Shown here one piece after another: positions 205 through 62,925 of a stretch of DNA of 64,000 nt. A program made the translations under genes and the position numbers. The stretch comes from an uncultured Mesorhizobium sp. (GTDB taxonomy: Bacteria; Pseudomonadota; Alphaproteobacteria; Rhizobiales; Rhizobiaceae), in assembly GCA_964629765.1 (NCBI GenBank), contig CAZVTK010000002.1, positions 32,898 through 96,897 of the forward strand, given 5' to 3'. Positions within the stretch are counted from its first letter, which is position 1, and each line of letters opens with the position of its first letter. A model generated the notes under the pieces. It did no database searches and was not told the DNA's origin. It saw only the letters and a program-made list of their open reading frames with translations.

Positions 205-212
205 ATGTCGGA

Positions 213-16227: not shown

Positions 16228-16266
16228 CTGACAGTTCGGCTTTCCCTGCACGACATCGAGCTATCT

Positions 16267-38385: not shown

Positions 38386-38507
38386 GCACACCTCATCCAG
38401 CGCGATCGCGGTACGGCGTCGTTCGAGGCAGACTGCGGCGCCCGCGCATGCCGGCCGTTCCCGACGAAAGGCGCTCGTCCAGCCGCTCCTCGCAGAAGTC
38501 CAACATT

Positions 38508-38587
38508 ATTCTGATTATCAGTATGCGGTCAATATGATCCGCCGCCTGCCGGCAGTTTGACAGCATGCACTTTATCAGTATACGGAG
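38508..38587. promoter_or_regulatory. Divergent promoter region with MarR-type sites ATCAGTATGCGGTC (38517-38530) and ATCAGTATACGGAG (38574-38587)
   Basis: Minus-strand TTGACC at 38527-38532 and plus-strand TTGACA at 38557-38562; AT-rich. Confidence 0.7.
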
Positions 38588-38634
38588 TAAAGACTGCCTA
38601 GGCCGCCGCGGCCGCGCAGCGGGGGAGGGACGTC

Positions 38635-44413: not shown

Positions 44414-44500
44414 TTTCGTCGCGACACGAACCCTTCGTGGGGACGCATCGTCAGGAATTGCGAGCGCCGGCGCGGGGTGTTCCTCGGCGCCACCGACGAT

Positions 44501-44515
44501 AATGGATGAACCATT
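44501..44515. promoter_or_regulatory. Putative FadR/GntR-type operator AATGGATGAACCATT
   Basis: Recurring palindrome; a minus-strand TTGAC lies about 12 bp away. Confidence 0.65.
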
Positions 44516-44619
44516 TATATTGCGAAGTCAACGTTGCGGCCGCCCGGCATGCACCCGCACCGCCGCCTCGGGCCGGGCGGGCAAGCGGCCGCCGGGGACG
44601 CGGGCGGACCGCGGCTCGC

Positions 44620-45798
44620 TCACCGCGCGGCCGTCCCGGCGGGCTCGCGGTCGAGCGCGATGCCGAATTCGGCCAACACCTCGCCGGTGTGCTCGCCCAG
44701 CACGGGCGGCCGCCCGATCTTGCGCAGCGGGGTCTCCGACAGGCGCAGCGGGTTGGCCACCAGCTTGAACTTGCCGGCGCGCGGGTGGTCGAGCTCGACC
44801 ACGAGGTCGCGCTGGATACGCGGGTCGCTGAACACCTCGTCGAAGGTGCAGACGGGCGCGAACATGGCCCCGGCGTCGAGCAGCGCCTTGTTCCAGTAGG
44901 CGAGGTCCTTCCGGGCGAACGCCTTCGCCAGGCCCTCGTCGACGATGGCGCGATGGGCAAGGCGCCCCTCCTTCGTCGCCAGCCTCTCGTCGGCCAGAAG
45001 CTCGTCGGCGCCCAGCGTCCCGGCGAGTACGCGCCAGAACTTGTCCGTGTGCGCGATCACCATGATGTGCCGCGCGTCGGCGGTCTCGTAGGTGTTGTAG
45101 GGCACGATCTGCCAGTGGGCGTTGCCCAGCCGGCCGGGCGTCTCGCCGGTGGTGAAATAGTAGGAATCGCGCGGGATCATGCTGTAGATCGTGGCGTCGA
45201 TCATCGACAGGTCGACGCGCTGCCCCTTGCCCGTCTTGTCGCGCGCCCGCAACGCCGCCATCACGCCCAGCGTGGACAGGAGCGGCGTGATGAGGTCCGC
45301 ATAGGGCATGCCGGTCTTCAGCGGGCCCGTCTTGTCGTCGCCGGTGAGCTGCATCAGGCCGGAGAGCGCCTGGATCACCGGGTCCATGCCCGGCCGGCTG
45401 GCGTTCTCACCCTCCTGGCCGAAGGCGGTGGTCTGGCAATAGATCAGGCCCGGATTCTCGGCGCTCAGGATCTCGTAGGTGATGCCCAGCTTCTCGGCGA
45501 TGCCGGGGCGGAAATTGACCGCCACGATGTCGACGTGCCGGGCGAGCTCGCGCGCCACGCGCTGGCCGTCGGCCGTCGTCAGGTCGAGCACGATGGAGCG
45601 CTTGTTGCGGTTCATCGTCAGGAAGTAGGCGGCGTCGTCGCCGATGAAGGTCTCGCCGGTCTTGCGGAAGGTGTCGCCCTGCGGCGGCTCGACCTTGATC
45701 ACGTCGGCGCCGAAATCCGCCAACAGCATCGTGCCCATCGGGCCGTTCATCATCTGGGTGAAGTCGAGCACCCGAATACCGTCCAGCGCACCGGCCAT
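44620..45798 (-). CDS. Class III CoA transferase (CaiB/BaiF)
   Basis: LDGIRVLDF, GP..MLLADFGADVIKVEPP.GD, NRNKRS and catalytic Asp in YADLITP. Confidence 0.93.
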   Translation of the reverse strand: MAGALDGIRVLDFTQMMNGPMGTMLLADFGADVIKVEPPQGDTFRKTGETFIGDDAAYFLTMNRNKRSIVLDLTTADGQRVARELARHVDIVAVNFRPGIAEKLGITYEILSAENPGLIYCQTTAFGQEGENASRPGMDPVIQALSGLMQLTGDDKTGPLKTGMPYADLITPLLSTLGVMAALRARDKTGKGQRVDLSMIDATIYSMIPRDSYYFTTGETPGRLGNAHWQIVPYNTYETADARHIMVIAHTDKFWRVLAGTLGADELLADERLATKEGRLAHRAIVDEGLAKAFARKDLAYWNKALLDAGAMFAPVCTFDEVFSDPRIQRDLVVELDHPRAGKFKLVANPLRLSETPLRKIGRPPVLGEHTGEVLAEFGIALDREPAGTAAR

Positions 45799-45840
45799 GG
45801 CCGTCTCCATATTCTAGCGGGCCCAACGATCGATTGGATC

Positions 45841-45855
45841 ATTGGATCAACCTTT
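45841..45855. promoter_or_regulatory. Putative FadR/GntR-type operator ATTGGATCAACCTTT
   Basis: Variant of the motif upstream of the CoA transferase; minus-strand TTGACA at 45883-45888. Confidence 0.6.
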
Positions 45856-45923
45856 GATTCTTATTCAGAAGGCCGGGATTCCTGTCAAGCGGCAAGACCC
45901 CGCCGTCCCCTCATGCCGTCCCC

Positions 45924-47570
<1,647 letters not shown>

Positions 47571-47588
47571 TCCCTCAAGTCTCTCGAT

Positions 47589-47662
47589 GCGGTTGCTCGC
47601 AAATGCCGGGCCTGCGGCCCGGCGGGCGGTTGTTCGCGAATGCCGGGCCTGCGGCCCGGCGG
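47589..47662. repeat. Two tandem 37-bp REP-like units, each containing the hairpin GCCGGGCC-TGC-GGCCCGGC
   Basis: Units 47589-47625 and 47626-47662 differ at 2 positions; intergenic. Confidence 0.85.
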
Positions 47663-47672
47663 AAAGTGCCGC

Positions 47673-48716
47673 TCAGGCGTCCTGCTCGCGGTAGAAGCCG
47701 AGCTTTTCCAGGGCCGGGATGTCGTTGACCTGGAAGAGGATCGCCTCCTTGCCGGTATCGTTCAGGTGTTCGTGCGCGGCCCAGGGCGGCAGCGCGAGGA
47801 AGTCGCCCTTGGCCCAGTCGAAGCGCTGCCCGTCGATGATCGTCGCGCCGCTGCCGTCGACCACGTAGTAGACGGCGCTGCCGGTGTGGCGGTGCGCCTT
47901 GGTGTGCACGCCGGGGCGCAGCATCTGCAACCGCGTGCCGATGGTCGGCAGCGCGGGCTCGCCGGTGAGCGGATTCTGGTATTCGAGGATGACGTCGTCA
48001 TAGGGGTCGGGCGCGAGGCCGGCGGCGAGCCGCAGCGCCTGCTCCGCGCGCGCCCATGTGTAGGCCAGCAGCGGGCTGGACTTCTTCGGCGCCGGTTTCT
48101 TCAGCGGCCGCATGATGCCGCTGCCGAACTCGCGGTACGAGCGGTCGGGGATGGGGTCCACCGTCTGACGGGCCTGGTCGAAATCCTCGAAGAAGGTGGC
48201 GTGCATGGAGCGCACCAGCGAGATGTCGAGCACGTCGATCCAGATCATCGGGCCCGTGCCCCGGTGCTCGTGGTCGTGCCAGGCGCCGCTCGGCGTCAGC
48301 ACGAGGTCGCCCTTGTTGACGAGGTACTGCTCGCCGTCGACGATCGTGTCGGCACCCTCGCCTTCCATGATGAAGCGCAGCGCGGAGGCCATGTGCCTGT
48401 GCGCCGTGGCGATCTCGCCGGGCAGGATGTACTGGATCGAGAGCCAGAAGGTCGGCGTCGTGCCGTAGGGCAGGCCGGGATTGGTGAGCCGCAGGGTCCG
48501 GCGCTGGCCGCCGGCCTCCAGCTTCAGCTTGGCGCCGATCTTGTCGAGCAGCATGGAAATGTCGGCCGCTTTCCACAGCACCGGCTTCATCGGCGAGGAG
48601 GGCGTCCTGGAAAAAAGCGGGCCGTCGGTCGGCTGCGCCACCCTGGTGTTGTAGCGCTCCAGCGTGTCAATCAATGCGGCGCGCTCGCTGGCGTCGCTCA
48701 TCTCAACCTTGGCCAT
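47673..48716 (-). CDS. Second gentisate 1,2-dioxygenase-family bicupin (substrate unknown)
   Basis: RRTLRLTNPG, AHRH.ASALRF, TPSGAWHDH, HRHTGSAVY. SD GAGGAGG. Confidence 0.88.
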   Translation of the reverse strand: MAKVEMSDASERAALIDTLERYNTRVAQPTDGPLFSRTPSSPMKPVLWKAADISMLLDKIGAKLKLEAGGQRRTLRLTNPGLPYGTTPTFWLSIQYILPGEIATAHRHMASALRFIMEGEGADTIVDGEQYLVNKGDLVLTPSGAWHDHEHRGTGPMIWIDVLDISLVRSMHATFFEDFDQARQTVDPIPDRSYREFGSGIMRPLKKPAPKKSSPLLAYTWARAEQALRLAAGLAPDPYDDVILEYQNPLTGEPALPTIGTRLQMLRPGVHTKAHRHTGSAVYYVVDGSGATIIDGQRFDWAKGDFLALPPWAAHEHLNDTGKEAILFQVNDIPALEKLGFYREQDA

Positions 48717-48815
48717 CCGTGCCTCCTCGCAACCTCTCCGCCTCGAAACGCGACGCATCCGGCAAGGCATGCGCGATCGAGGCCGGGCGACCATGCGCCC
48801 GTCCAATCTTTGTGT

Positions 48816-48960
48816 CAATGGATGAACCATTGTATTTGGCGCGATGTCTGAAATGCCGCATGCCGGATCGAATCGCTGCGGGGGAACCCGGTCGCTCAAG
48901 CTGCGCAGATGGTGGTCATCTTGACCACCACCTCCAATTTTCATATGGTTCAACCATTGA
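48816..48960. promoter_or_regulatory. Divergent promoter with FadR-type sites CAATGGATGAACCATTG (48816-48832) and ATGGTTCAACCATTGA (48945-48960), plus inverted repeat GGTGGTCA-tct-TGACCACC (48911-48929)
   Basis: Read directly; each site overlaps a TTGACA hexamer. Confidence 0.7.
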
Positions 48961-48988
48961 CACTCATGGAAATGGCTGGGAGGAAAAC

Positions 48989-50068
48989 ATGCTGAAACGT
49001 CTCGGCGCGCTGTGCGCCACCGCCTTCATGGCGGCCACCATCGCCGCCGGCCCCGCCGCGGCACAGGACATGCCGGCGCCCGGCGACGAAGCCGCCCTCT
49101 ACGAGCGCGCCAAGGCCGAGGGTTCGCTGGTCTGGTATACCGGCGGCGCGCTCGACACCTCGCAGGCCATCGCGGCCTCCTTCGAGAAGGCCTATCCGGG
49201 CGTCAAGGTCGAGGTCCTGCGCCTTGCCGGCGCCGCGCAGTACCAGCGCTTCATGGAAGAGACCGGTGCCGGCCAGAACATCGCCGACATCCTGTGGATC
49301 GGCGACTACCCGTCCATGCAGGCCCTGGTCGCGGACGAGCTCGTCGCCGAGTGGCGCATCCCGACCGCGGACCGCTTCGACGAGCGCTACCGCATGGGCG
49401 GCCGCGCCTACGCGTTCAACCGCGTCGACTCGGTCATCGTCTACAATGACAGGCTGGTGAGCGAGGAAGAGGCGCGCCTGCTCGAGGCGGACTGGCGCAA
49501 CATTCTCGATCCGCGCTTCAAGGGCCGCTTCGCCACCACCACCGCCAAATGCGGCGCCTGCTACGTGGCGATCAACCTGTTCACCGACCCGGCCCTGTCC
49601 TCCGTCTATCCCGAGGACTTCCTTGAAAAGGTCGGCGCGCAGGGACCGGCGGTCTACAACGACTTCATCGCCATGGTGGACCGCATCGTCGCCGGCGAGA
49701 ACGACTTCGCCTACTGGAGCTTCGAGTCCATCGCGGCCACCAAGCGCGCCCAGGGCGCGCCGGTGAAGTGGGTCTACCCGAAGCCGACGCCGTCCTTCCC
49801 GAGCACCTGGATGGCCGTCTCCGGCAAGGCGCCGCATCCCGCCGCCGCGCGCCTGTTCATCAACTGGGTGGGCAGCGAGGCCGGCGCCAGGTCGATCATG
49901 CTCGACTATTTCGGCACGCCGACCATGAGCGGCATCGCCGACGAGCGCGCCTTCGCTTCCGAGGACTGGTATCGCGGCCCGGCAGAGCTCTACAACGTCG
50001 ACTTCAACCGCTGGATCGAGCGCTACGACGCCGACATGGCGCGCTGGATCGCCGCGATCAGCCGTTAG
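48989..50068 (+). CDS. ABC transporter substrate-binding protein (FbpA/PotD-like), Sec signal
   Basis: MLKRLG..AAA signal, AEGSLVWYT, DPRFKGRFA. SD GGGAGG. Confidence 0.88.
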   Translation: MLKRLGALCATAFMAATIAAGPAAAQDMPAPGDEAALYERAKAEGSLVWYTGGALDTSQAIAASFEKAYPGVKVEVLRLAGAAQYQRFMEETGAGQNIADILWIGDYPSMQALVADELVAEWRIPTADRFDERYRMGGRAYAFNRVDSVIVYNDRLVSEEEARLLEADWRNILDPRFKGRFATTTAKCGACYVAINLFTDPALSSVYPEDFLEKVGAQGPAVYNDFIAMVDRIVAGENDFAYWSFESIAATKRAQGAPVKWVYPKPTPSFPSTWMAVSGKAPHPAAARLFINWVGSEAGARSIMLDYFGTPTMSGIADERAFASEDWYRGPAELYNVDFNRWIERYDADMARWIAAISR

Positions 50069-50093
50069 CGGCCGTGGTTTCTTCCGCAAGCTG

Positions 50094-50130
50094 GACGCCG
50101 GCCGGCCGATCCGCCGGCCGGCGTCGTTTC
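50094..50130 (+). terminator. 13-bp GC stem-loop (GACGCCGGCCGGC/GCCGGCCGGCGTC) after the SBP gene; weak terminator or stabiliser
   Basis: Perfect stem, 6-nt loop, short T tail. Confidence 0.5.
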
Positions 50131-50177
50131 CTGCCTTTGCCCGGCGCGCAATGCAGCAAGCCGGCGGCGGATCGACC

Positions 50178-51392
50178 ATGATGCCGGACATCCGCATCGG
50201 CGACGAGGAGCGCTCCCGCAGGAGGATGCGCGTGCTCGCCGATATCCACAACCTGAACGACATGCGAGAAGCCGCCCGCCGGCGGTTGCCGAAGGGAATC
50301 TTCGAGTTCATCGACCGAGGCGCCGAGGACGAGATTGCGATCTCGAACAACCGGCGCGCCATCGACGACCTGAAATTCTCTCCGAAAGTGCCGCGCGACG
50401 TGTCGGGACGCACTGCCGATACGGTTCTGTTCGGGAAGCGCCACGGCATGCCGGCCGCGATCGCGCCGACCGGCGCTGCCGGGCTGGTGCGCTACCAGGG
50501 CGAGTTGGAGCTGGCCCGCGCCGCCGCACAGGCGAACATACCCTTCACGCTTGCGACCCGTTCGACGATATCACTGGAGGAGGTCGCCGCCCGCGCAGGC
50601 GGCACGCTGTGGTTCCAGCTCTATGTATGGGCTGACAGGAGCCTGTCCCACGGCATTGTGGAGCGGGCGGCGAAGGCCGGATACGAGGCGCTGGTCGTCA
50701 CCGTCGACACGCCTGCGCCGCCCAACCGCGAATACAACCACCGCAACGGCTTTTCCCTTCCGTTCGTGCCTTCCGGCCGCGCGGTACTCGACATGGCACG
50801 CCATCCGAAATGGCTTTTCGGCGTGATGGGAAGATATCTCCTGACCACCGGCATGCCCCGCTACGAAAACCAGCCCGGCGAGCACAACCAGAAGATGACG
50901 CGCGGCGCCGAGACGCTGGCGTCGCGCATCAGCGATTCCGTCACCTGGGAGGATATCGCGACGTTGCGCCGGCTCTGGCCGCGCACGCTCATCCTCAAGG
51001 GCATCCTGCGTGCGGACGATGCGAGGAAGGCGGTGGAACACGGCGTCGACGGAGTCGTGGTGTCCAACCATGGAGGCCGCTGCCTGGATGCCGCCGTCGC
51101 ACCCCTCGATGCATTGCCGGGCATCGCCGACGCCGTCGCCGGACGGGCAACCATCCTGGTCGACGGCGGCTTTCGCCGCGGCAGCGACATAGCGAAGGCG
51201 ATATGCCTGGGCGCATCTGCCGTGCTGCTGGGCCGGACGACGCTGTTCGGCACGGCCGTGGCGGGCGAAAAGGGGGCACACCACGCGCTGGCGATCCTGC
51301 GACGCGAGCTTCTGACGGTGATGGCGATGACAGGCGCTTCGGCGCTGTCCGACCTTGAGCCCGATCTCCTGGTCGGCGGAAGCAGGACATGA
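50178..51392 (+). CDS. FMN-dependent alpha-hydroxy acid dehydrogenase (lactate/mandelate/glycolate oxidase family)
   Basis: F.FIDRGAEDE, WFQLY, TVD, NRE, LKGI, SNHGGR, DGGFRRGSDIAKA. Start uncertain. Confidence 0.92.
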   Translation: MMPDIRIGDEERSRRRMRVLADIHNLNDMREAARRRLPKGIFEFIDRGAEDEIAISNNRRAIDDLKFSPKVPRDVSGRTADTVLFGKRHGMPAAIAPTGAAGLVRYQGELELARAAAQANIPFTLATRSTISLEEVAARAGGTLWFQLYVWADRSLSHGIVERAAKAGYEALVVTVDTPAPPNREYNHRNGFSLPFVPSGRAVLDMARHPKWLFGVMGRYLLTTGMPRYENQPGEHNQKMTRGAETLASRISDSVTWEDIATLRRLWPRTLILKGILRADDARKAVEHGVDGVVVSNHGGRCLDAAVAPLDALPGIADAVAGRATILVDGGFRRGSDIAKAICLGASAVLLGRTTLFGTAVAGEKGAHHALAILRRELLTVMAMTGASALSDLEPDLLVGGSRT

Positions 51393-51506
51393 AGGCTGGA
51401 CCTGAAGGGCGCGAGCGCCGTCTCCCGATATTTGTTCCCTCGCCGCTTCGAAACAGGAGCGACGCCGGGAATGCGTCGATCCCTAACGGCAGGAGCCGAA
51501 GACATC

Positions 51507-51935
51507 GTGACGCTTGACTGGACGACGGCGCGGGCCGTCATCGAAACCTACCTGCATGGCGTCGACGCCAAAGACGAGGCCGAGCTGCTCGGCGTGTTCG
51601 CCGAGGACGCCGAGGCGCTCTACCATCGCGGCTCGGCCGACGAGCGCCGCACGCTGGGCCGCGACGGGATCGTCGGCGAGATCGTGCGCAGCATCGCGCG
51701 CTTCACCGCATCGAACCACAGCATCTCCAATTTCACCGTGAAGCTCAACGGCGACGCCGCGCGCACGGACACTTTCGCCATCGCCAACGTCGTCTTCGGC
51801 ACGCGCATGCTGGTGCGCGGGCTGCGCTATCAGGACCTGATCGTGCGCACGCCCGCCGGGCCGGTCATCCGCGAGCGCGTCCACACGCCGCTCTGGCAGA
51901 CCGAGCTGGCCACCGTGCCGCCGAAGATGGGCTGA
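51507..51935 (+). CDS. NTF2/SnoaL-like domain protein
   Basis: Y.HGVDAKD..L.VFAEDA, SNH.ISN, GLRYQD. GTG start after AGGAG. Confidence 0.8.
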   Translation: MTLDWTTARAVIETYLHGVDAKDEAELLGVFAEDAEALYHRGSADERRTLGRDGIVGEIVRSIARFTASNHSISNFTVKLNGDAARTDTFAIANVVFGTRMLVRGLRYQDLIVRTPAGPVIRERVHTPLWQTELATVPPKMG

Positions 51936-51958
51936 GCCTCGCGGGCGGCGCCGGCGTT

Positions 51959-53077
51959 TCAGGCGTCGCGCTGCGCCTGCGCCGCGAAGGCGTAGGCGGC
52001 TTCGATGATCTCCAGATGGCGCACCCCCGCCTCGATGTCGATCTCGCCCGACCGTCCGGCGTCGAGCGCGTCGAGGAACGCCGATATGTCGGCATCCGGC
52101 GATTCCCGCTCCAGCGGCACCGGCGCGTTGCCGCGCGGCGGGATCGCGGCGATGGTGGAGGCCCACATCGACATCGGGTCGTGCTCGTATCCGGCCGGAT
52201 GCGCGAACGGCACCGTCGGCGCGTGCACCACGAGCCGGTCGCGCAGCGGCCCGAAGCGCGCCACGCCGCCGCTGCCGTGCAGCGTCACGCCCATGAAGCC
52301 GCGCCAGGGGTGCCGGTCCCAGCCGATGCGGCCGGCATTCATCGTGGCGATCACGCCGCCCTCGAATTCCACCACGAGCGCGCCGAAATCCTCCGCGTTC
52401 TGGTCGAGATGCTCGCGGAAGAAATGGTTGCCCGTGAATGCCGCCACCGAGCGCACGGGCCGGCCGACCAGCCAGCAGGCAAGCGAGACGGGATAGTAGC
52501 CCATGTCGAACAGCTCGCGCTTGGCCGATTCGGCGGGAAAGCGCGGCAGCGCCGTCACCTCCCTGCGGATGCCGGACGGCAGCTCCGCCGGCATGCCCTT
52601 GGACACCAGCATCTCGCCATGCAGGGCGAGCAGCGTGCCCAGCCGGCCGGACTCCAGCGCCCGCCTGGCCTCGCGCGCCCACGGCGTGGTCGCATGGCTG
52701 AGGATCTGCGTTTGCACGCCGCCGGCGCGCACCGCGGCGGCGATGCGCCGGGCGTCGGCGGCGGAAGCGGCCGCCGGCTTGTCGAGATAGAGATGCAGGC
52801 CGCGCCCCGCGCAGCGGGCGGCGACCTCGCCGCGGTCTTCCATCGGCACGCACACGCAGGCGATGTCGGCTCCCCGGTCGAGGGCCGCGTCGAGCGTGAG
52901 GAAATCGATGCCGAGCCGGGCCGCCATAGCGGCGCCGGCCGCCCGCCGCGGCTCCGGTATGCCGGGAAGGTCGGCCAGCGCCACGACCTCGCAGCGCGGC
53001 TCCGCCATGAAATGCGGCGCGTAGTGCTCCTGGTGCGTGCGGTCCCCGCCGGCGAGCAGTACCCGGTAGCGCGCCAT
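51959..53077 (-). CDS. Gfo/Idh/MocA family oxidoreductase
   Basis: HLYLDKPAA, ELFDMGYYP, AEDFGA..F.GG.IAT. Confidence 0.85.
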   Translation of the reverse strand: MARYRVLLAGGDRTHQEHYAPHFMAEPRCEVVALADLPGIPEPRRAAGAAMAARLGIDFLTLDAALDRGADIACVCVPMEDRGEVAARCAGRGLHLYLDKPAAASAADARRIAAAVRAGGVQTQILSHATTPWAREARRALESGRLGTLLALHGEMLVSKGMPAELPSGIRREVTALPRFPAESAKRELFDMGYYPVSLACWLVGRPVRSVAAFTGNHFFREHLDQNAEDFGALVVEFEGGVIATMNAGRIGWDRHPWRGFMGVTLHGSGGVARFGPLRDRLVVHAPTVPFAHPAGYEHDPMSMWASTIAAIPPRGNAPVPLERESPDADISAFLDALDAGRSGEIDIEAGVRHLEIIEAAYAFAAQAQRDA

Positions 53078-53079
53078 GG

Positions 53080-53454
53080 TCAGGGCTCGTGCCGCCAGGT
53101 CAGCGATCCGCCGCTGCCGAGCACGAGCAGGTCGCAGCGGCTTTCCGGCGCGACGACCACCGACAGCAGGGCGATCTGCCCGCCGGACCAGAGCGCGAGC
53201 ACGGCGGCGGCGGATGCTCCGCCCACCGGGTGCAGGCTCCTGCGCTCGCCGCCGAAGCACCGGCCGATCGCAGCCAGCGCGCCGTCGCGCGCGGCGGCCG
53301 CGCCCGCCTCCGACGTCACCGCGAGCAGCAGCCGGGCGGAGCGCGGCGTGCCGATGCGCCCGCCGGCAACGGCCCGGTCGACGGCGTCCCAGAGCCTGGC
53401 AAGCAGGGCCGGCAGCTCGAGGGTCGGGTCGGGGGTCGGGTCGGGCGCGCCCAT
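53080..53454 (-). CDS. Hypothetical protein (124 aa)
   Basis: Fills the gap between the permease and the Gfo/Idh/MocA gene with 2-7 bp spacing; no recognised domain. Confidence 0.5.
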   Translation of the reverse strand: MGAPDPTPDPTLELPALLARLWDAVDRAVAGGRIGTPRSARLLLAVTSEAGAAAARDGALAAIGRCFGGERRSLHPVGGASAAAVLALWSGGQIALLSVVVAPESRCDLLVLGSGGSLTWRHEP

Positions 53455-53461
53455 GGCCGCC

Positions 53462-55240
53462 CTATTTCGACGCCGCGACGGCTTCGAGCCGCACCTTGAA
53501 CAGCGCCCGTGTCACCAGCACCAGGCCGATCATCATCGCCGTCTGCACGACGCCGACCGCCGAGGCGAACTGGTACTCGCCGCCGTCCATGTAGTGCCAG
53601 GTCAGCACCGAGAGCGTCAGGCTCTTCTGGCTGTAGAGCAGCGCGGAGGCGGACAGCTCCTTGATCGACTGCAACATGACGAAGAACAGCAGCGCGATCA
53701 GCGTCGGCTGGACCAGCGGCATGACGATGGCGCGGATCGCCCTCAGCCGCGAGGCCCCGGACATGCGCGCGCTCTGCTCCAGCTCGGGATGGACCTGCAT
53801 GATCGCCGATCGGCTGACGAGGATGCCGTAGGGCAGCGACTTGGCGACCATCGCCAGGAGCAGGATCCAGATCGTGCCGTAGAGCGGCGTGCGCAGATAG
53901 AGCCACAGCAGGCCGATGCCGTAGACGAGGCCCGGCACCGCCACCGGCAGCACGCCGAGCATGGCGACCGTCTTCGAGAAGAAGGTCGGCTGGCGCACCT
54001 CGAGGAAGCTGATCAGGAAGCCGAACACCACGCAGGCGGCGCCGGTCAGTATCGCGGCCAGCGCGGTGTTCCACAAGGCGGTCCGCGTGTCGGGCAGGTT
54101 GAGGATCTTGTCGTAGTGGACGAGCGTGAGGATGTCCCACGAGATCGTCGTCGACGAGTACTTCATGAACGACGACAGGATGATCGAGCCGAGCGGCAGG
54201 ATGTCGGCCGCGAGCACGTAGACCGTGATCACCGCCAGCGCCGGCCATTTGAGCGCGCCCAGCGGCAGCGGCTTGCCCTTGAACCCCTTGCCGGCCATCG
54301 TCACGTAGCGCTCGCTGCGCCTGGTGATGACGCGCTGGATCAGCATGCCGGCGATGGCGATCCACAGGATCATGGTGCCCGCGGCGGCCGCGTGGGCACG
54401 GTGCACCGGGAACTGGGTCGAGTCCTTGTAGATCTGCCAGGGCAGCGTGGTGAAGCCGGCATTGGCGCCGATGATGCCGGGTATGGTGTAGACCTCGGCG
54501 GCGAGGATGAAGACCAGCAGGCCGGCCGAGAAGATCGACGGCATGGCCATCGGCACGGTGATGAGGCTCAGCGTCTTCAGCGGGCCGGCGCCGGACATGC
54601 GGGACGCCTCCTCCAGCGAGGAATCCATGGTCCGCATCGAGCCGACCGTGAACAGGTAGACGAACGGGCAGAAGAACAGGAACATCACCCACACGACGCC
54701 GCCGAAGCTCCAGATGTTGAAGAGAGGCGACGCGTCGATGCCGAACAGGCTCCAGAACTGCATCCAGGCGATGTTGATCAGCCCCGTCTTCTCCGAGCCC
54801 AGCGCGATCCACGCGATGAGGCCGGTGAAGGGCGACACGAACATCGGCATGATGATCAGCAGCTCGATCAGGCCTTTGTTCTTCATGTCGGTGCGTGCCA
54901 TGATCAGCGCCATGACGACGCCGAAGACCAGCGACAGCGCGGTGACGAGCGCCGAAAGCAGCAGGGCGTTCATCAGATAGCCCAGATATTGCGCCGTCCC
55001 GTACACGTTGATCACGGCTTCGAGGCTGCGCACCGCGCTGAGGCCGACACGCGTCTCCTTGTAGAAGGACGCGTCCACGGCCAGCACCAGCGGGACGATG
55101 GAAACCAGGATGACCGCGGCGGCGATCGCCAGCCACAGCAGGTTTTCCGGCGTCAGGTAGGTCCTGAAGATGTCGGTCCGGCGCGGCGCGATCACGGTGC
55201 CGGCAGTGCGGGGCATCGTATTGACGGACTGCATGGCCAT
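53462..55240 (-). CDS. ABC transporter permease with two TM domains (FbpB-like)
   Basis: Two EAA loops (SLEEASRMSGA, ELEQSARMSGA). ATG 55240 after SD GGGAG. Confidence 0.92.
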   Translation of the reverse strand: MAMQSVNTMPRTAGTVIAPRRTDIFRTYLTPENLLWLAIAAAVILVSIVPLVLAVDASFYKETRVGLSAVRSLEAVINVYGTAQYLGYLMNALLLSALVTALSLVFGVVMALIMARTDMKNKGLIELLIIMPMFVSPFTGLIAWIALGSEKTGLINIAWMQFWSLFGIDASPLFNIWSFGGVVWVMFLFFCPFVYLFTVGSMRTMDSSLEEASRMSGAGPLKTLSLITVPMAMPSIFSAGLLVFILAAEVYTIPGIIGANAGFTTLPWQIYKDSTQFPVHRAHAAAAGTMILWIAIAGMLIQRVITRRSERYVTMAGKGFKGKPLPLGALKWPALAVITVYVLAADILPLGSIILSSFMKYSSTTISWDILTLVHYDKILNLPDTRTALWNTALAAILTGAACVVFGFLISFLEVRQPTFFSKTVAMLGVLPVAVPGLVYGIGLLWLYLRTPLYGTIWILLLAMVAKSLPYGILVSRSAIMQVHPELEQSARMSGASRLRAIRAIVMPLVQPTLIALLFFVMLQSIKELSASALLYSQKSLTLSVLTWHYMDGGEYQFASAVGVVQTAMMIGLVLVTRALFKVRLEAVAASK

Positions 55241-55263
55241 CGATGGTCTCCCTTGCCTGTGGG

Positions 55264-55536
55264 CTAGGTCGTGTACTGATAATGGGTTTGGCCGCGGCGC
55301 GAGCCGGATTTGGGCCCTGAGCAGGCGAAAAGACCGCCGTGGTGTCGACCACCACAAGGGCTTTTCAACGAACTCAGGCCGCAAATCCGCCGCGCCCCGA
55401 AGGGGTATGGCCAAAATCGGTGATTTCGTCGTCGCGGACCCTCGACGGGGAACCACCCCGCCTTCGGCTCCGCTCCTCGAACTGACCGATTTTGACCCAT
55501 ACCGCGGCTCGAACCCATTATCAGTACACGACCTAG
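55264..55536. mobile_element. MITE-like non-autonomous element 2 (273 bp including both CTAG)
   Basis: Perfect 25-bp inverted ends CTAGGTCGTGTACTGATAATGGGTT (55264-55288 / 55512-55536); lies between the ABC ATPase and permease genes. Confidence 0.85.
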
Positions 55537-55562
55537 GCCCACGCTGTCGGATATCGCCAAGG

Positions 55563-56657
55563 TCAGGCCGCCTTCGCGACGTCTGCGGCACCCACCGGGT
55601 AGAGGAGGACGTTGGAAGGGTCGATCCGCACCCACAGCCGCTGCTCCGGCTTCCACAGGGCCGGCGGGCTGAGCTGCCCGCGCAACTGGTGATCGCCGAT
55701 ACGCAGGTAGATGTCGCCGATGTTGCCGAGGAAGTAGGTCGCCTCGGCCTTGCCCTGGAACACGTTGACGCCCTCGATCGCCGAGGCGGAGATTTCCAGC
55801 ATTTCCGGCCGCACGACCACCTCGACCGCCGATCCGGCGGGCAGCGGGCTCTGGCCGCACAGAAGCTCCGTTCCGTCGGAGAGCCGCACGCGGCTCCGCG
55901 CGCCGCTTTCCACGAGCCGTCCGGCGAGGATGTTGGCGAGCCCGATGAACTCCGCGCCGAAGCGCGTGGCGGGCCGGTAGTAGATGTCGGTGGGCGAGCC
56001 GATCTGGTCGATGCGCCCCTCGTTCATCAGCACGATGCGGTCGGCGACGACCATCGCCTCCTGCTGATCGTGGGTGACGTAGATCGAGGTGATGCCGAGG
56101 CCTTGCAGGAGCTGGCGCAGCTCGAAGCGCATGCGCTCGCGCAGCTTGGCATCGAGGTTGCTCAGCGGCTCGTCGAAGAGCAGCACGCGCGGCTCCAGCA
56201 CGATGGCGCGGGCGAGGGCGACGCGCTGCTGCTGGCCGCCCGAGAGCTGGCTGGCGCCGCGGCCGGCAAAGGCCTCCAGGCCGACGCGCCGCAATGCGGC
56301 GGCCACCTTCCGGTCGATCTCGGCGCGCGGCTCCTTCTTGATCTTCAGGCCGAACGCGACGTTCTCGGCGACGGTCATGTGCGGCCAGATCGCATAGGAC
56401 TGGAACACCATGCCGATCTCGCGCTTTTCCGGCGGCACGGCGAAGGAAGGGGACGAGACCACGCGGTCGCCGATGACGATCTCGCCGGCGCTGACGTCCT
56501 CCAGCCCGGCGATGCAGCGCAGCGTCGTCGTCTTGCCGCAGCCGCTCGGACCGAGCAGCACGATGAACTCGCCCTCGCCGATCTCCAGGTCGATCGTCCT
56601 CACCGCGAGGAAATCGCCGTAGCTCTTTTCAATGCCACGAATGCTGACGCTGGACAT
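55563..56657 (-). CDS. ABC transporter ATP-binding protein (PotA/FbpC family)
   Basis: GPSGCGKTT, LSGGQQQRVALAR, DEPLSNLD, TOBE-like tail. Confidence 0.95.
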   Translation of the reverse strand: MSSVSIRGIEKSYGDFLAVRTIDLEIGEGEFIVLLGPSGCGKTTTLRCIAGLEDVSAGEIVIGDRVVSSPSFAVPPEKREIGMVFQSYAIWPHMTVAENVAFGLKIKKEPRAEIDRKVAAALRRVGLEAFAGRGASQLSGGQQQRVALARAIVLEPRVLLFDEPLSNLDAKLRERMRFELRQLLQGLGITSIYVTHDQQEAMVVADRIVLMNEGRIDQIGSPTDIYYRPATRFGAEFIGLANILAGRLVESGARSRVRLSDGTELLCGQSPLPAGSAVEVVVRPEMLEISASAIEGVNVFQGKAEATYFLGNIGDIYLRIGDHQLRGQLSPPALWKPEQRLWVRIDPSNVLLYPVGAADVAKAA

Positions 56658-56726
56658 GAAACCTCCCTTCGCCCGGCGGGATCGCGCTCAGGCCGGCGAC
56701 CCCAAAACAGGATTTTTCGTCAATCG

Positions 56727-56745
56727 TCAATGGTTGAACCTTTGA
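56727..56745. promoter_or_regulatory. Putative FadR/GntR-type operator TCAATGGTTGAACCTTTGA
   Basis: Near-perfect palindrome upstream of the ABC operon. Confidence 0.7.
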
Positions 56746-56776
56746 CTTTTTATCAACTCCCTGTCGGCCTTGCAGT

Positions 56777-57691
56777 TCACTCCGCGGCGGCCGACGGGAG
56801 CACCGTCGCGACGATCGAGGCGTCGAGCGCCTCGAACTCGTGATAGCCGATCATGTCGTATAGCTCGGCGCGCGTCTGCATCGCGTCGAGCATGTCCCTG
56901 GTCGCGCCGGTCCGGGCGATGGTCGCGTAGAGCGTCTCCTGCGCCTTGGCGGCGACGCGCAGCGAACTCACCGGCCAGATCACCATGCGGTAGCCCATGG
57001 CCTCGAATTCCTGCGCGGTGAAGAACGGCGTCCTGCCGAACTCCGTCATGTTGGCCAGCAGCGGCGCATCGACGCGGGAGGCGAACTCCTCGAACATGGC
57101 GCGCGTGGTCAGCGCTTCCGGGAAGATCGCGTCGGCGCCGGCATCGAGATATTGCCGGGCGCGCGCCACCGCGCCGTCGATGCCCTCGCTCGCCGCGGCA
57201 TCGGTGCGGGCGATGATGCAGATGTGCCTGCGCGCTCTTGCCGCGGCATTGATCTTGGCGGCCATGTCGCCGGGCGAGGCGAGCTTCTTGTCGTTCAGGT
57301 GCCCGCATTTCTTGGGCAGGAGCTGGTCCTCGATGTGCACCGCCCCGGCGCCGGCCTCCTCGAAGGCGCGCACCATGTGCATCACGTTCAGCGCCTCGCC
57401 ATAGCCGGTATCGCCGTCGACCAGCAGCGGCAGCCCGGTCGCGCGCGCGATCTGGCGCACGAAGAAGCAGACGTCCTCGACGCTGATCACGCCCAGGTCG
57501 GGCAGGCCCATCGAGGCGCTCATGGCGCCGCCCGACAGGTACAGCGCCTCGAAGCCGGCGCGCTGCGCCTGCAATGCCGCCAGGCCGTTATGCGCTCCCG
57601 GCATGCGCAGGATGCCGCCGCGCTCGACGAGCTTGCGGAACCGCACGCCGGCGGGCTCGGCCGGCAGATCCCCGGCGATCAGGTAAGTCAT
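56777..57691 (-). CDS. prpB: 2-methylisocitrate lyase (ICL/PEP mutase family)
   Basis: GLPDLG, VDGDTGYG, HIEDQ..PKKCGH, ARTDA, DAIFPEAL, LANMTEFG.TP. Confidence 0.9.
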   Translation of the reverse strand: MTYLIAGDLPAEPAGVRFRKLVERGGILRMPGAHNGLAALQAQRAGFEALYLSGGAMSASMGLPDLGVISVEDVCFFVRQIARATGLPLLVDGDTGYGEALNVMHMVRAFEEAGAGAVHIEDQLLPKKCGHLNDKKLASPGDMAAKINAAARARRHICIIARTDAAASEGIDGAVARARQYLDAGADAIFPEALTTRAMFEEFASRVDAPLLANMTEFGRTPFFTAQEFEAMGYRMVIWPVSSLRVAAKAQETLYATIARTGATRDMLDAMQTRAELYDMIGYHEFEALDASIVATVLPSAAAE

Positions 57692-57735
57692 GAGGTTCCT
57701 TTCACCTTCCCGCGTCTCGCCCGAGCACCGACGCC

Positions 57736-57779
57736 TTTACATCACGATCCGGCGCAACTATCAATGGTTCATCCAATGA
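57736..57779 (+). promoter_or_regulatory. Promoter TTTACA-N17-TATCAA overlapped by FadR-type site TCAATGGTTCATCCAATGA (57761-57779)
   Basis: Read directly; divergent prpB / CoA-transferase junction. Confidence 0.7.
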
Positions 57780-57798
57780 TCCACTAGAGAGACCGACG

Positions 57799-58938
57799 AT
57801 GACGGGCACACCCGCACCCAAGGCCAGGCGACCGCTGGACGGCGTCGTGGTCATCGAAACCGCCAGCTTCCTCACCGGCCCCTTCGCCGGGATGATGCTG
57901 TCGGACCTCGGCGCGGACGTGATCAAGGTCGAGCCGCCGGCGGGCGACGGCTTCCGCCGCTTCGGCCACAACCGCGACGGCTTCGGCGCGTCGTGGACCA
58001 ACTCCAACCGGGGCAAGCGCAGCGTCGTCATCGACCTCAAGACTCCCGAGGGTCTGGCGCGGCTCAAACGGCTCCTGCGCAGCGCCGACGTGCTGATCGA
58101 GAACTGGCGCCCGCGCGTCTCCGAATCGCTCGGCCTCGGGCGCGAGACCGTCGAGGCCCTGAACCCGCGCCTGATACGCCTGTCGATCACCGGTTTCGGC
58201 GACACCGGCAAGCTCGCCAATGCGCCGGCCTTCGATTCGCTGATCCAGGGTCGCACGGGCATCGTCGCCTCGGAAGCGCGCAACGGCGCGCCTGCGGTAA
58301 CGCCGTTCAACATGGTCGACAAGGTCACCGGCGCATTCGGGGCGCAGGCCGTTCTCGCCGCGCTGTTCGAGCGCGAGCGTACCGGAAAGGGCGCCAGCAT
58401 CCAGATGCCGATGCTCGACGTCATGGGCTACTTCAACTTCCCGGACATGTTCCAGCATCGCACCTTCGAGAACGACGACAGCGACTGGAAGCCGCCGGCG
58501 TCGCAGGTGCTCGCCACCAGCGACGGCTTCGTCGTGATCTCGCCGGCGAACGGGCAGCAGATGTCGAAGACGCTGAACGCCATCGAGCGGCCCGAATGGA
58601 AAGAGGAATTCAAGCGCATGTCCGACCCCGTGCGCATGGCGGAGGAGTTCTTCCGCCGGGTCGGCGAGGTGGTGAAGGCGCGCGACACGCGCCATTGGCT
58701 CAAGGTATTCGCCGAGCAGGACGTGCCCGCCGCGCCCGTCTTCAGCCTCGACGACTTCCTGAACGACGAGCAGGTGGCCAACAACCGCATCTACAACTTC
58801 GTCGACTCGCATGTCGGCCCGCTGCGCACGGCGCGCTATCCGGCCACCTTCGACGGGCGGATGATGACCGCCCAAGCCGGGCCGCCGAAGGTCGGCGAGC
58901 ACGACGCGGACATTGGCGGCGCGGGAGAGGCGGCATGA
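57799..58938 (+). CDS. Class III CoA transferase (CaiB/BaiF)
   Basis: GPFAGMMLSDLGADVIKVEPP.GD, NRGKRS and Asp in MVDKVTG. Confidence 0.92.
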   Translation: MTGTPAPKARRPLDGVVVIETASFLTGPFAGMMLSDLGADVIKVEPPAGDGFRRFGHNRDGFGASWTNSNRGKRSVVIDLKTPEGLARLKRLLRSADVLIENWRPRVSESLGLGRETVEALNPRLIRLSITGFGDTGKLANAPAFDSLIQGRTGIVASEARNGAPAVTPFNMVDKVTGAFGAQAVLAALFERERTGKGASIQMPMLDVMGYFNFPDMFQHRTFENDDSDWKPPASQVLATSDGFVVISPANGQQMSKTLNAIERPEWKEEFKRMSDPVRMAEEFFRRVGEVVKARDTRHWLKVFAEQDVPAAPVFSLDDFLNDEQVANNRIYNFVDSHVGPLRTARYPATFDGRMMTAQAGPPKVGEHDADIGGAGEAA

Positions 58939-59816
58939 AGATCGCGAGTTTCGACGGCCGCCGCATCGGCATCATCGACGGCGACGAGATCGTGGACGTG
59001 ACCGGGCTGAGCGGCATGGCGGCCGACGTCTGGCCGCCGGTGGGCATGGTCGCCTTCCTGGCGAAGTTCGTCGCCGACCGCGGCGCGGTGGAGGCGGCGA
59101 TGCGCAGCGGTCCGCGCCGGCCGCTCCCGGCGGTGCGGCTCGAGGCGCCGATCGCCTGGCCCAACAAGGTCATCGCCTACCCCGCCAACTACCATGCGCA
59201 CATAGAGGAGCAGAAGAAGTCGGCCGTGGGTCTGATTTCCACCTTCAAGGCGGACGGCCAGGGCTTCTTCCTCAAGGCGAACTCCAGCATCAGCGGGCCG
59301 AACGACCCGATCGTGCTGCCGGCCGTGGCCAATCGCGAGATCCATCACGAATGCGAGCTCGCCATCGTCATCGGCAAGGGCGGGCGGCAGATCCCGCGCG
59401 CCGCCGCCATGGACCACGTGCTCGGCTATTCCTGTCTGCTCGACATGGTCATCCGCGGCAAGGAGGAGCGCGTCATGCGCAAGTCCTACGACAGCTTCTG
59501 CCCGATGGGCCCCTATATCGTGACCGCCGACGAGATCGCCGACCCGGCGGCGATCGAGCTCGAACTGCGCGTCAACGGGTCGGTCAGGCAGAGCGCGGTG
59601 ACGCGCGACCTGATCGTCGACATCCCCCACATGATCGAAATGGCCTCCGCCGTGATGACGCTCCATCCGGGCGACATCATCGCCAGCGGCACGCCGCAGG
59701 GCGTCGGCCCGGTCGCCGGCGGCGACGTGGTCGAGATCGCGATCGAAGGGGTCGGCGCGATGAAGCTCGACGTCGTCCAGGGTGCCGGCGGCAACCATCC
59801 CGTCTGGGACAAATAG
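58935..59816 (+). CDS. Fumarylacetoacetate hydrolase family protein
   Basis: NY..H..E, FLKANSSI.GP, HHECEL, RKSYDSFCPMGP, PGDII.SGTP.GVG. ATGA overlap. Confidence 0.92.
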   Translation: MKIASFDGRRIGIIDGDEIVDVTGLSGMAADVWPPVGMVAFLAKFVADRGAVEAAMRSGPRRPLPAVRLEAPIAWPNKVIAYPANYHAHIEEQKKSAVGLISTFKADGQGFFLKANSSISGPNDPIVLPAVANREIHHECELAIVIGKGGRQIPRAAAMDHVLGYSCLLDMVIRGKEERVMRKSYDSFCPMGPYIVTADEIADPAAIELELRVNGSVRQSAVTRDLIVDIPHMIEMASAVMTLHPGDIIASGTPQGVGPVAGGDVVEIAIEGVGAMKLDVVQGAGGNHPVWDK

Positions 59817-59837
59817 TCCGCTCGGCGCCGGCCGTGT

Positions 59838-61058
59838 TCAGTCCCGTCCCGGGGCACCCTTGCGGCGTCCCAGCCCCGGCAGCCAGAAGCCGAGCAGGGC
59901 GACGCCGTTGGCCGCCACGAGCACGATGCTCATCGCCGTGGCCAGGTCGGCCGGAATGGCGCCGACCGCCGCGATGATCCCCGCCCCGGCGGCCATCTGG
60001 AGACAGCCGTAGAGGCCGGACGCCGCGCCGATCGCTTCGGGATCGACGTTGATCGCCTCGGTCATGGCGAAGGCGCTGCACAGCCCGATGGCGAAGGTGA
60101 GCACGAGGATCGGCGCGAACAGGCGCCACAGCGTCAGCGCGTCCGCGACCACGAACAGCAGGACAGCGAGGCTGGAAGCCAGCAGCAGGACGCTCGCGAC
60201 CCGCGTGACGACCGTCGGCCGGACCTTGCCGGCCATGCGGCTGGCGAACAGGCTGCCGACCGTCAGCGCGCTGACGACGCCCAGGAACGCATAGCCGGTC
60301 TGCTGGAGCGACAGGCCGAAATCGTGCTGCATGATGAAGGGGCCGGCGCCGACGAAGGCGTAGAAGCTCGTCGTCGCGAATGCGCCGCTGACGCAGTAGC
60401 GCAGGAAGGCCGGGTTGCGCATGAGCTGCATGTACCGGCGCGCATAGTCCGAAGCGCCGCCGTTGCCGTCGCGGGCGAACGTTTCCGGCAAGGTCAGCAC
60501 CGTCACCAGCAGCAGCAGGGCGTTGACCGCAGCCAGCGTGACGAAAATCCAGCGCCAGCCCAGGCTGTCGGTGATCAGCGCGCCCAGCATCGGCGCCAGC
60601 CCCGGGCCGATGCTCACCGACGCCCCGAGGATGGCGAGCCGCGACGTCGCCCGCTCCGGCCCGGCGGCGTCGCGGGTGATGGCGCGGCCCAGCACGAGGC
60701 CCGAGCAGCCGCCCACCGCCTGGACCACCCGCGCGACGAGCAACAGCTCCAGGCTCTGCGCCGCCGCTATCACGATGCTCGCCACGACGTAGAGCAGCAG
60801 TCCGACGATCAGCACCGGCCGCCGGCCGAAGCGGTCGGACAGCATGCCGATCACGAGCTGGCCGATCGACAGCCCGATCAGATAGGCGGTGACGGAGAGC
60901 TGGATCGCCGCCGCCGAGACGCCGAGATCGCGCGCCGCGTCCGGCAGCGCCGGCACGAAGATGTGGACCGGGACCGTTCCCGACAGGGCGAGCCACACGA
61001 CGTAGGCGAGCGCCGGTTTCCGCGAGAACCGCGCCGGCGGCGCTTTCAGTATTTCCAT
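59838..61058 (-). CDS. Bcr/CflA family MFS efflux transporter
   Basis: FVPALPDAARDL, GMLSDRFGRRPVL, 12-TM pattern. Confidence 0.9.
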   Translation of the reverse strand: MEILKAPPARFSRKPALAYVVWLALSGTVPVHIFVPALPDAARDLGVSAAAIQLSVTAYLIGLSIGQLVIGMLSDRFGRRPVLIVGLLLYVVASIVIAAAQSLELLLVARVVQAVGGCSGLVLGRAITRDAAGPERATSRLAILGASVSIGPGLAPMLGALITDSLGWRWIFVTLAAVNALLLLVTVLTLPETFARDGNGGASDYARRYMQLMRNPAFLRYCVSGAFATTSFYAFVGAGPFIMQHDFGLSLQQTGYAFLGVVSALTVGSLFASRMAGKVRPTVVTRVASVLLLASSLAVLLFVVADALTLWRLFAPILVLTFAIGLCSAFAMTEAINVDPEAIGAASGLYGCLQMAAGAGIIAAVGAIPADLATAMSIVLVAANGVALLGFWLPGLGRRKGAPGRD

Positions 61059-61150
61059 TCGACTCTCTGCCCTGCTGCCGGGCTTTCTGTGCGCAGCCGA
61101 TCCGGCTGGCAAGCGGCAATCGCACGCCTTGACACCCTCCTTAATTTGGA

Positions 61151-61168
61151 TCAAAGGTTCATCCATTG
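61151..61168. promoter_or_regulatory. Putative FadR/GntR-type operator TCAAAGGTTCATCCATTG
   Basis: In the divergent MFS/ECH intergenic region; TTGACA at 61129-61134. Confidence 0.68.
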
Positions 61169-61185
61169 GCAATGGAGGAATTGCG

Positions 61186-62064: not shown

Positions 62065-62076
62065 GTCCGCCTCTCC

Positions 62077-62108
62077 GCGAATCCCCGACTGGGCGAATCC
62101 CCGACTGG
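62077..62108. repeat. Perfect 16-bp tandem duplication GCGAATCCCCGACTGG x2
   Basis: Copies at 62077-62092 and 62093-62108; intergenic. Confidence 0.85.
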
Positions 62109-62116
62109 ACATTCCC

Positions 62117-62911: not shown

Positions 62912-62925
62912 CAGGGAACAATGCC

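Follow-up and report, generated by a model that had tools for sequence, protein, structure and literature searches.

Which protein reads the seven palindromes that stand in front of genes in the right-hand third of a 64,000-nucleotide stretch of DNA from an uncultured Mesorhizobium sp. (contig CAZVTK010000002.1, positions 32,898 to 96,897; the whole stretch is hereafter the window), and what do the genes behind them have in common? Our analysis indicates, with a probability of roughly 0.85, that these palindromes are operators of an autoregulated repressor of the FadR subfamily of GntR proteins, carrying an FCD domain, with at least ten operators and about 13 transcription units under its control.

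The sites themselves are unambiguous. A search of the whole 64-kb window with AATGGWTGAACCWTT, allowing up to two mismatches, gave matches at exactly seven places (44501, 45841, 48817, 48944, 56729, 57763 and 61153), whereas 0.03 matches were expected from shuffled sequence and the 11 strand-matches obtained were reached in no shuffle. An earlier note on this DNA had listed seven palindromes, all of which exist, though five of its coordinates (48816, 48945, 56727, 57761 and 61151) are off by 1–2 nt, and the core that it described turned out to be part of a longer motif. Alignment of the sites gives a 23-bp palindrome with the consensus TGTCAATGGTTsAACCATTGACA, each half-site reading t-(g/a)-T-C-A-A-T-G-G-(T/A)-T followed by C or G at the centre; the GG is present in 19 of the 20 half-sites and the T next to the centre in all 20, while the last base of the TGGT core is T in 13 and A in seven. 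Scored with a symmetrised 23-bp position weight matrix (PWM) derived from the window sites, the seven reach 30.8–35.7 bits, and nothing else in the window exceeds 12 bits. That no site occurs left of 44.5 kb, as the same note had reported, is therefore not a threshold effect and holds at a lax PWM threshold too; when the 5.9-kb continuation described below is included, the scan likewise finds no other position at 12–27 bits. Placement is equally far from random in this DNA of 68.5% G+C, since all seven sites fall within the non-coding 6.9% of the window (chance ∼7e-9), and six of the 12 intergenic gaps right of 41.5 kb contain one, against none of the 19 gaps to the left (Fisher p = 0.0013). 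Within the window, the distance from an operator centre to the start codon that it faces is 26–112 bp (Table 1).

No GntR gene lies in the window, where a tblastn search with the 247-aa regulator described here found no paralogue and Pfam scans of the open reading frames (ORFs), those of the left 40 kb included, detected as sole transcription factor a MarR gene at 15796–16260 (−), 28 kb from the sites. The earlier note had reached the same view and had placed a GntR gene probably beyond 64 kb, and inspection of the flank bore this out. Two Logan metagenome contigs (L001 and L002), found by exact-protein look-up of the short-chain dehydrogenase/reductase (SDR) gene, match window positions 60798–64000 at 100% (3.2 kb) and each other over 7.2 kb, and past the window end they continue with the acyl-CoA dehydrogenase (ACAD), a PrpF-like gene and a gene for a 247-aa GntR and FCD protein. 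The latter gene occupies window-equivalent positions 65274–66017 (L001 4477–5220), ∼1.27 kb past the window end, and its product contains a PF00392 GntR winged helix-turn-helix (72.2 bits, cut-off 27, residues 22–79) and a PF07729 FCD domain (60.1 bits, cut-off 24.3, residues 113–230). The exact regulator protein sequence is also encoded on an NCBI contig, and the source contig almost certainly carries the gene.

Beyond the window the gene order is PrpF-like isomerase, operator, GntR/FCD regulator, operator, FAD_binding_2 protein. The operator 56 bp upstream of the regulator gene scores 27.6 bits and has one degenerate arm, the one 38 bp upstream of the FAD_binding_2 gene scores 36.2 bits with a perfect core, and a third, between a divergent SDR and a thiolase-like gene, scores 36.7 bits. 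With these three the regulon comprises at least ten operators and ∼13 transcription units, a lower bound, as the available sequence reaches window-equivalent 69.86 kb and the regulon extends past its end. The regulon is wider than the interval 44501–61168 to which it had been assigned, spanning from 41.5 kb in the window to at least window-equivalent 69.8 kb (28 kb).

The architecture of the motif agrees with that of the regulator. The operator consensus of the FadR subfamily, which includes PdhR, LldR, GlcC, ExuR and FadR, consists of an A/T-rich palindrome in which three nucleotides separate a TKGT box from an ACMA box (PMC4494728), and the sites described here read TGGT-TsA-ACCA at their centre, so that the ascription of a TGGT-N3-ACCA core to this subfamily stands. 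'Additional boxes' have been reported for GntR sites (PMC4494728), and an extra half-site-like box resembling them (CAATGGA; GATTGGATC) was observed ∼10 nt from the core palindrome at O7 (61170–61176) and O2 (45830–45838), such a flanking box being present at only two or three of the ten operators. Like the PdhR, LldR, UxuR/ExuR and GlcC-type FCD regulators of Escherichia coli, the protein combines a GntR winged helix with an all-helical FCD domain, and PdhR and NanR give a close alignment over its DNA-binding domain. As in PdhR/LldR-type systems, the regulator gene adjoins the regulated catabolic genes and has a site upstream of itself. It differs from them in its half-site, TCAATGGWT, where the PdhR/LldR type has AATTGGT, and in the size of its regulon, whose ten or more operators and ∼13 units in 28 kb are uncommonly many for a local regulator. 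The NCBIfam scores of the protein, namely 100 bits for NanR (cut-off 260), 81.3 for PdhR (330), 76 for UxuR and 73.6 for LldR (311), lie far below the cut-offs (260–442), and it is therefore not an orthologue of PdhR, LldR, NanR, UxuR, ExuR or GlcC.

With E. coli FadR it shares the subfamily, the TGGT-N3-ACCA-type operator logic and the control of genes for CoA-dependent beta-oxidation, but the similarity is confined to the N-terminal domain and the C-terminal domain is FCD (PF07729). A Pfam scan of the regulator (E <= 0.001) gave matches to GntR, FCD, HTH_41 and Rrf2 only and none to FadR_C, and thus acyl-CoA sensing cannot be assumed. With an FCD domain in place of FadR_C, a small carboxylate is a likelier effector than an acyl-CoA, as is generally expected of this domain family. 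A further parallel is offered by regulators such as VanR and Atu1419 of Agrobacterium fabrum (PMC7797058), GntR/FCD repressors of clusters that shorten the side chains of aromatic acids in a CoA-dependent manner, Atu1419 being reported as a tetramer with its own operator; compared with these, the present regulon adds a gentisate-type ring-cleavage branch together with PrpB and PrpF. We found no paper describing an orthologue of the regulator or the pathway. What is predicted here is a standard FadR-subfamily GntR repressor system, ordinary in mechanism, of which the regulator and the pathway are uncharacterised.

The association of motif, regulator and enzymes recurs in other genera. GTDB representative genomes were scanned with the regulator and 80 of the 411 relatives found were kept; among these the closest belong to Paracoccus sp. 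MKU1 (76% identity), five Caballeronia (64–66%), a Sphingomonas metagenome-assembled genome (MAG; 58%) and several Burkholderiales, and a megaplasmid of Paraburkholderia sp. PREW-6R, used as bare sequence since its record is unannotated, carries an orthologue with 66% identity. Regulator orthologues 38–76% identical adjoin the genes for enoyl-CoA hydratase (ECH), SDR and ACAD, in some cases with PrpF, as well as the monooxygenase–bicupin pair and the second CoA-transferase (CoAT2) with its fumarylacetoacetate-hydrolase-family (FAH) partner. The ECH–SDR–ACAD(–PrpF) proteins encoded beside the regulator elsewhere are 72–90% identical to those described here, and monooxygenase–bicupin, CoAT2–FAH, PrpB, MFS and solute-binding protein (SBP)–ABC genes also occur at orthologous loci in varying combinations. 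In Caballeronia and Paraburkholderia, ECH, SDR, ACAD, electron transfer flavoprotein (ETF) subunits, bicupin and monooxygenase form one operon divergent from the regulator.

The sites accompany the regulator as well. At a threshold of ≥17 bits, 14 of 24 400-bp windows upstream of regulator genes contained a site, against 2% of 1015 background windows, and among orthologues at least 52% identical the proportion rose to eight of nine. The PWM derived from the window found five sites at the Paracoccus MKU1 locus and eight in 32.7 kb at the Paraburkholderia locus, the latter preceding the MFS gene, a porin gene, CoAT2–FAH, the ECH operon and the regulator; in both loci the sites occupy places equivalent to those described here (regulator, ECH operon, CoAT2–FAH, transporters, porin). 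The DNA-binding domain of the regulator is nearly invariant among orthologues. A scan of metagenome contigs for the exact motif gave 120 matches, 100 of them in DNA below 50% G+C that look like chance matches of an A/T-rich 17-mer, while of the ∼13 matches in DNA of at least ∼60% G+C three adjoin orthologues of regulon genes (L118, L124 and L131) and lend weak support. A megablast of the 44–64 kb region against PLSDB plasmids gave no close relative, the best match covering 18% at 77% identity. Two Burkholderiales MAG loci each carry two paralogous regulator copies within 10 kb (L010, 10001–10696 and 17831–18520; L012, 6520–7239 and 10311–10991), 44–48% identical to the query and adjoining CoA-transferase, ECH and ACAD genes, a pattern suggesting that the regulon has been duplicated and sub-functionalised in certain lineages.

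From these observations we infer that a dimer of the regulator would bind each 23-bp palindrome through two TCAATGGWT half-sites around one central base, and that the bound protein, positioned at the core promoter of each operon or immediately downstream of it, would block transcription. The regulator gene's own, weaker operator implies autoregulation. A substrate or intermediate of the pathway, most likely a carboxylate held in the FCD domain, would then release the protein and turn on the whole set. The positions of the operators appear to favour repression: eight of 13 operator centres lie no more than 56 bp from a start codon, six lie 20–40 bp downstream of a TTGAC/TTGAT hexamer, and elsewhere TTGACA is formed by the operator arm itself. 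O2 has a promoter-like pair, TTGACA-17-AATAAG, directly upstream, and O4 overlaps the −10 hexamer of a promoter-like site, TTGACC-17-TATGGT; from the promoter and terminator scan this O4-overlapping match is the only one used, as a hint.

We regard it as unlikely that this GntR/FCD protein, once bound at the palindromes, works chiefly by activation or as a dual regulator. The centres that lie 100–125 bp from a start codon (ThDP enzyme 112, bicupin 108, MFS 102, thiolase 123) could stand upstream of their promoters, and members of the FadR subfamily such as E. coli FadR itself act both ways, but most sites lie 26–56 bp from a start codon, or across or directly downstream of −35/−10-like hexamers, which is the geometry of steric repression; moreover, FCD regulators of catabolic operons generally act by repression that the substrate relieves (PMC4494728). 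Binding of the palindromes by some other protein, either the MarR product or a global factor, with the GntR neighbour a coincidence, could be entertained because the MarR gene is the only regulator gene within the window and binding by the GntR protein is a prediction. It is nevertheless very improbable, given that the MarR gene lies 28 kb away with the left 44 kb devoid of sites, that the motif tracks the GntR orthologues in Alpha- and Betaproteobacteria, including positions directly upstream of their own genes, and that its architecture is that of the FadR subfamily and unlike CRP/FNR-type or LacI-type operators or a typical MarR box. Hardly credible, finally, is the notion of a dispersed repetitive element of the kind known as repetitive extragenic palindromes (REP) or miniature inverted-repeat transposable elements (MITE), with no regulatory role; the region does hold other repeats (the hairpin element at 55261–55539 and the tandem repeat at 47589–47662), but the palindromes have only ∼23 bp in common between unrelated flanks, all copies precede a start codon by 26–123 bp, none of them standing between convergently transcribed genes, and motif and position are kept in genera so distant that neutral sequence would no longer be alike.

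Several observations nonetheless weigh against operators of an autoregulated repressor serving one pathway. The GT of the family consensus reads GA in seven of the 20 half-sites. For the regulator gene the sequence comes from near-identical metagenome contigs and not from the window itself; a one-residue difference in PrpF between the Logan contigs and the NCBI genome shows that the metagenome strain is a very close but not an exact match. A scan for sigma-70 promoters returned two promoter-like matches against 1.4 expected, no more than in shuffles, and a run search located the sequence in four metagenome DNA runs and in no RNA-seq run. In the Sphingomonas MAG the gene of the orthologue (58% identity) is not preceded by a site and appears to be co-transcribed with the genes before it. 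In the other genomes compared, the thiamine-diphosphate (ThDP) enzyme, the first CoA-transferase (CoAT1), the FMN dehydrogenase, the SnoaL-like protein and the GFO oxidoreductase were not seen near the regulator; they are members of the regulon by operator position only, and for this reason a single pathway is unproven.

Genes were called by third-position G+C and checked with Pfam and NCBIfam, and these checks agreed with the families that the earlier note had named. From 41.5 kb onwards the units are the first solute-binding protein (SBP1) with the ThDP enzyme (O1), probably one operon; CoAT1 (O2); bicupin with monooxygenase (O3); SBP2 with the FMN dehydrogenase and SnoaL-like protein (O4); ABC ATPase, permease and GFO (O5); PrpB divergent from CoAT2 and FAH (O6); and MFS divergent from ECH, SDR and ACAD (O7). 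Transport is thus represented by two solute-binding proteins, an ABC importer and an MFS transporter, and metabolism by two family III CoA-transferases, a beta-oxidation-like ECH–SDR–ACAD trio, a RebC-like FAD monooxygenase, a gentisate-type bicupin dioxygenase, a FAH hydrolase, PrpB, the PrpF-like isomerase and accessory oxidoreductases. The only regulon enzyme above its NCBIfam equivalog cut-off is PrpB, and specific substrates are therefore not assigned to the others. The PrpF-like protein falls short of the PrpF cut-off (254.8 bits, cut-off 440.55), and its score for 4-oxalomesaconate tautomerase is higher (307, cut-off 440).

Table 1. Predicted operators and genes of the regulon within the window (distances are from the operator centre to the start codon; O, operator)
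Feature	Position	Strand	Score (bits)	Remarks
SBP1, periplasmic solute-binding protein (SBP_bac_8)	41525..42613	-		downstream of ThDP gene
Thiamine-diphosphate (ThDP) enzyme, 568 aa	42690..44396	-		all NCBIfam matches far below cut-offs
O1 CGATAATGGATGAACCATTTATA	44497..44519		32.0	112 bp upstream of ThDP-enzyme gene
Family III CoA-transferase 1 (CoAT1)	44620..45810	-		best matches succinate-glutarate and succinyl-CoA:mesaconate transferases, below cut-offs
O2 GATCATTGGATCAACCTTTGATT	45837..45859		31.8	38 bp upstream of CoAT1
FAD aromatic-ring monooxygenase (FAD_binding_3 + Rng_hyd_C)	45924..47570	-		RebC is the nearest solved structure
Bicupin dioxygenase, gentisate / 5-aminosalicylate 1,2-dioxygenase family	47673..48716	-		
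O3 TGTCAATGGATGAACCATTGTAT	48813..48835		33.9	108 bp upstream of bicupin-monooxygenase operon
O4 TTCATATGGTTCAACCATTGACA	48940..48962		30.8	38 bp upstream of SBP2
SBP2, periplasmic solute-binding protein	48989..50068	+		N-terminus signal-peptide-like
FMN-dependent alpha-hydroxy-acid dehydrogenase/oxidase	50151..51392	+		LldD-like, below cut-off
SnoaL-like protein	51432..51935	+		
GFO/IDH/MocA-family oxidoreductase	51959..53260	-		last gene of ABC operon; start codon uncertain
Fused two-domain ABC permease (PhnU2/PotBC-like)	53462..55240	-		true start ATG 55240, not 55591
ABC transporter ATPase with TOBE domain	55563..56657	-		
O5 CGTCAATGGTTGAACCTTTGACT	56725..56747		33.7	79 bp upstream of ABC ATPase-permease-GFO operon
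PrpB, methylisocitrate lyase	56777..57691	-		passes TIGR02317 (428.9 bits, cut-off 354.4)
O6 TATCAATGGTTCATCCAATGATC	57759..57781		35.7	divergent prpB / CoAT2, start codons 79 and 29 bp away
Family III CoA-transferase 2 (CoAT2)	57799..58938	+		adjoins FAH in other genomes too
Fumarylacetoacetate-hydrolase-family protein (FAH)	58935..59816	+		matches no equivalog
MFS transporter, 406 aa	59838..61058	-		start as called on contig L001
O7 GATCAAAGGTTCATCCATTGGCA	61149..61171		31.1	divergent MFS / ECH, start codons 102 and 26 bp away
Enoyl-CoA hydratase/isomerase-family protein (ECH)	61186..62064	+		heads ECH-SDR-ACAD-PrpF operon
Short-chain dehydrogenase/reductase (SDR)	62117..62911	+		
Acyl-CoA dehydrogenase (ACAD)	62926..64000	+		cut by window end; complete on L001, 380 aa

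The core conserved between genomes consists of the uptake systems, a CoA-transferase, ACAD, ECH and SDR with ETF, and a flavin hydroxylase with gentisate-type dioxygenase and FAH, and it suggests that the acid broken down is a carboxylic acid of aromatic, aryl-aliphatic or alicyclic type. The families present point to an acid that may be handled partly as a CoA thioester before ring cleavage in the manner of gentisate, and PrpB together with the PrpF-like protein suggests that a substituted maleate, aconitate or methylisocitrate-type fragment might be processed further; a DcaP-type porin in Paracoccus hints at a dicarboxylate. PrpC, PrpD and AcnD of the methylcitrate cycle were not found within the 28 kb examined.

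The resemblance to gentisate clusters lies in a FAD monooxygenase adjoining a bicupin of the gentisate 1,2-dioxygenase family, plus a FAH-family hydrolase. The nearest structure of the bicupin is 3bu7 (E = 2e-71), and its membership is clear at the level of the gentisate / 5-aminosalicylate dioxygenase family, although it scores below the gentisate dioxygenase equivalog TIGR02272 (260.5 against 442.1 bits) and, with a slightly higher score, below 5-aminosalicylate dioxygenase (274.9 against 650). Unlike in gentisate clusters, the hydroxylase here is RebC-like instead of a classical 3-hydroxybenzoate 6-hydroxylase, the regulon contains no glutathione-type isomerase to match their maleylpyruvate isomerase, and Caballeronia and Paraburkholderia join these genes with ECH–SDR–ACAD and ETF in one operon.

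The earlier note had seen in these genes one GntR-controlled pathway. A single predicted regulon is well supported, but with only part of it conserved beside the regulator elsewhere one pathway has the standing of a hypothesis. As a tentative scheme, which taken jointly in all its steps is rather doubtful, we propose an undescribed hybrid route carried on chromids and megaplasmids of Alpha- and Betaproteobacteria. A family III CoA-transferase would activate an alicyclic or aryl-aliphatic carboxylate, which ACAD, ECH and SDR, helped by FAD_binding_2 desaturases, would convert into a hydroxybenzoyl-type intermediate; the RebC-like flavoprotein would hydroxylate this and the gentisate-type dioxygenase open the ring, the removal of a substituted maleate or aconitate-type fragment would fall to the PrpF-like and PrpB-like enzymes, and the new FCD sensor of a pathway intermediate would switch on the whole route.

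Some further features of the cluster deserve mention in their own right. SBP1 and SBP2 are paralogues in inverted orientation, with ∼45% amino-acid identity and a nucleotide identity of 72–76% over stretches of 118–127 nt, and the regulon holds one permease/ATPase set only beside these two solute-binding proteins. Between the ABC ATPase gene, which stops at 55563, and the permease gene, which starts at 55240, lies an element of ∼280 nt (55261–55539) with 28-bp terminal inverted repeats that are 96% complementary; it folds as one long hairpin (−192 kcal/mol, z = −13.6), occurs once in the window, makes the permease ORF seem 117 codons too long and looks like a MITE-type insertion within the ABC operon. 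In the 102 bp that separate the start of the monooxygenase gene from the bicupin stop lies a tandem duplication (47589–47662) of a 37-nt unit, 95% identical, with the GC-rich hairpin GCCGGGCCTGCGGCCCGGC in each unit, a REP-like repeat or else an intra-operon attenuator or terminator.

The remainder of the window stands apart from this regulon. The MarR gene lies amid a separate catabolic cluster at 10–34 kb that lacks the GntR motif and comprises a thiolase-like protein with a DUF35/ChsH2-like partner, an AMP-ligase, a cyclase, SDRs, an Old-Yellow-Enzyme-type reductase, a CoA-transferase III, an ECH, a FAD monooxygenase, a FAD_binding_2 protein and a P450 with ferredoxin reductase; it is presumably the first regulon to which the earlier note's 'second' alludes. 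Also outside the GntR regulon are a second gentisate-dioxygenase-like cupin (27078–28121, −) and a GST-N-domain protein (25716–26483, −), possibly of maleylpyruvate-isomerase type, and the window therefore has two separate ring-cleavage enzymes of gentisate type that are controlled differently. Unrelated to the regulon are the hydantoinase/oxoprolinase B and A subunits that adjoin a peptide-type ABC system at 171–4293, as well as a molybdopterin oxidoreductase, an Fe-S/FAD protein and a FAD_binding_2 protein at 34568–40071.

What makes this locus stand out is the number of operators in one 28-kb cluster, their conservation between Alpha- and Betaproteobacteria and the uncharacterised set of enzymes that they accompany. 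Motif and regulator together delimit ∼25 putatively co-regulated genes more sharply than annotation does. Other soil and rhizosphere bacteria, Paracoccus, Caballeronia and Paraburkholderia among them, share the regulator, the motif and the core enzymes, and the regulon therefore offers a handle on both substrate and effector of a catabolic pathway that is uncharacterised.

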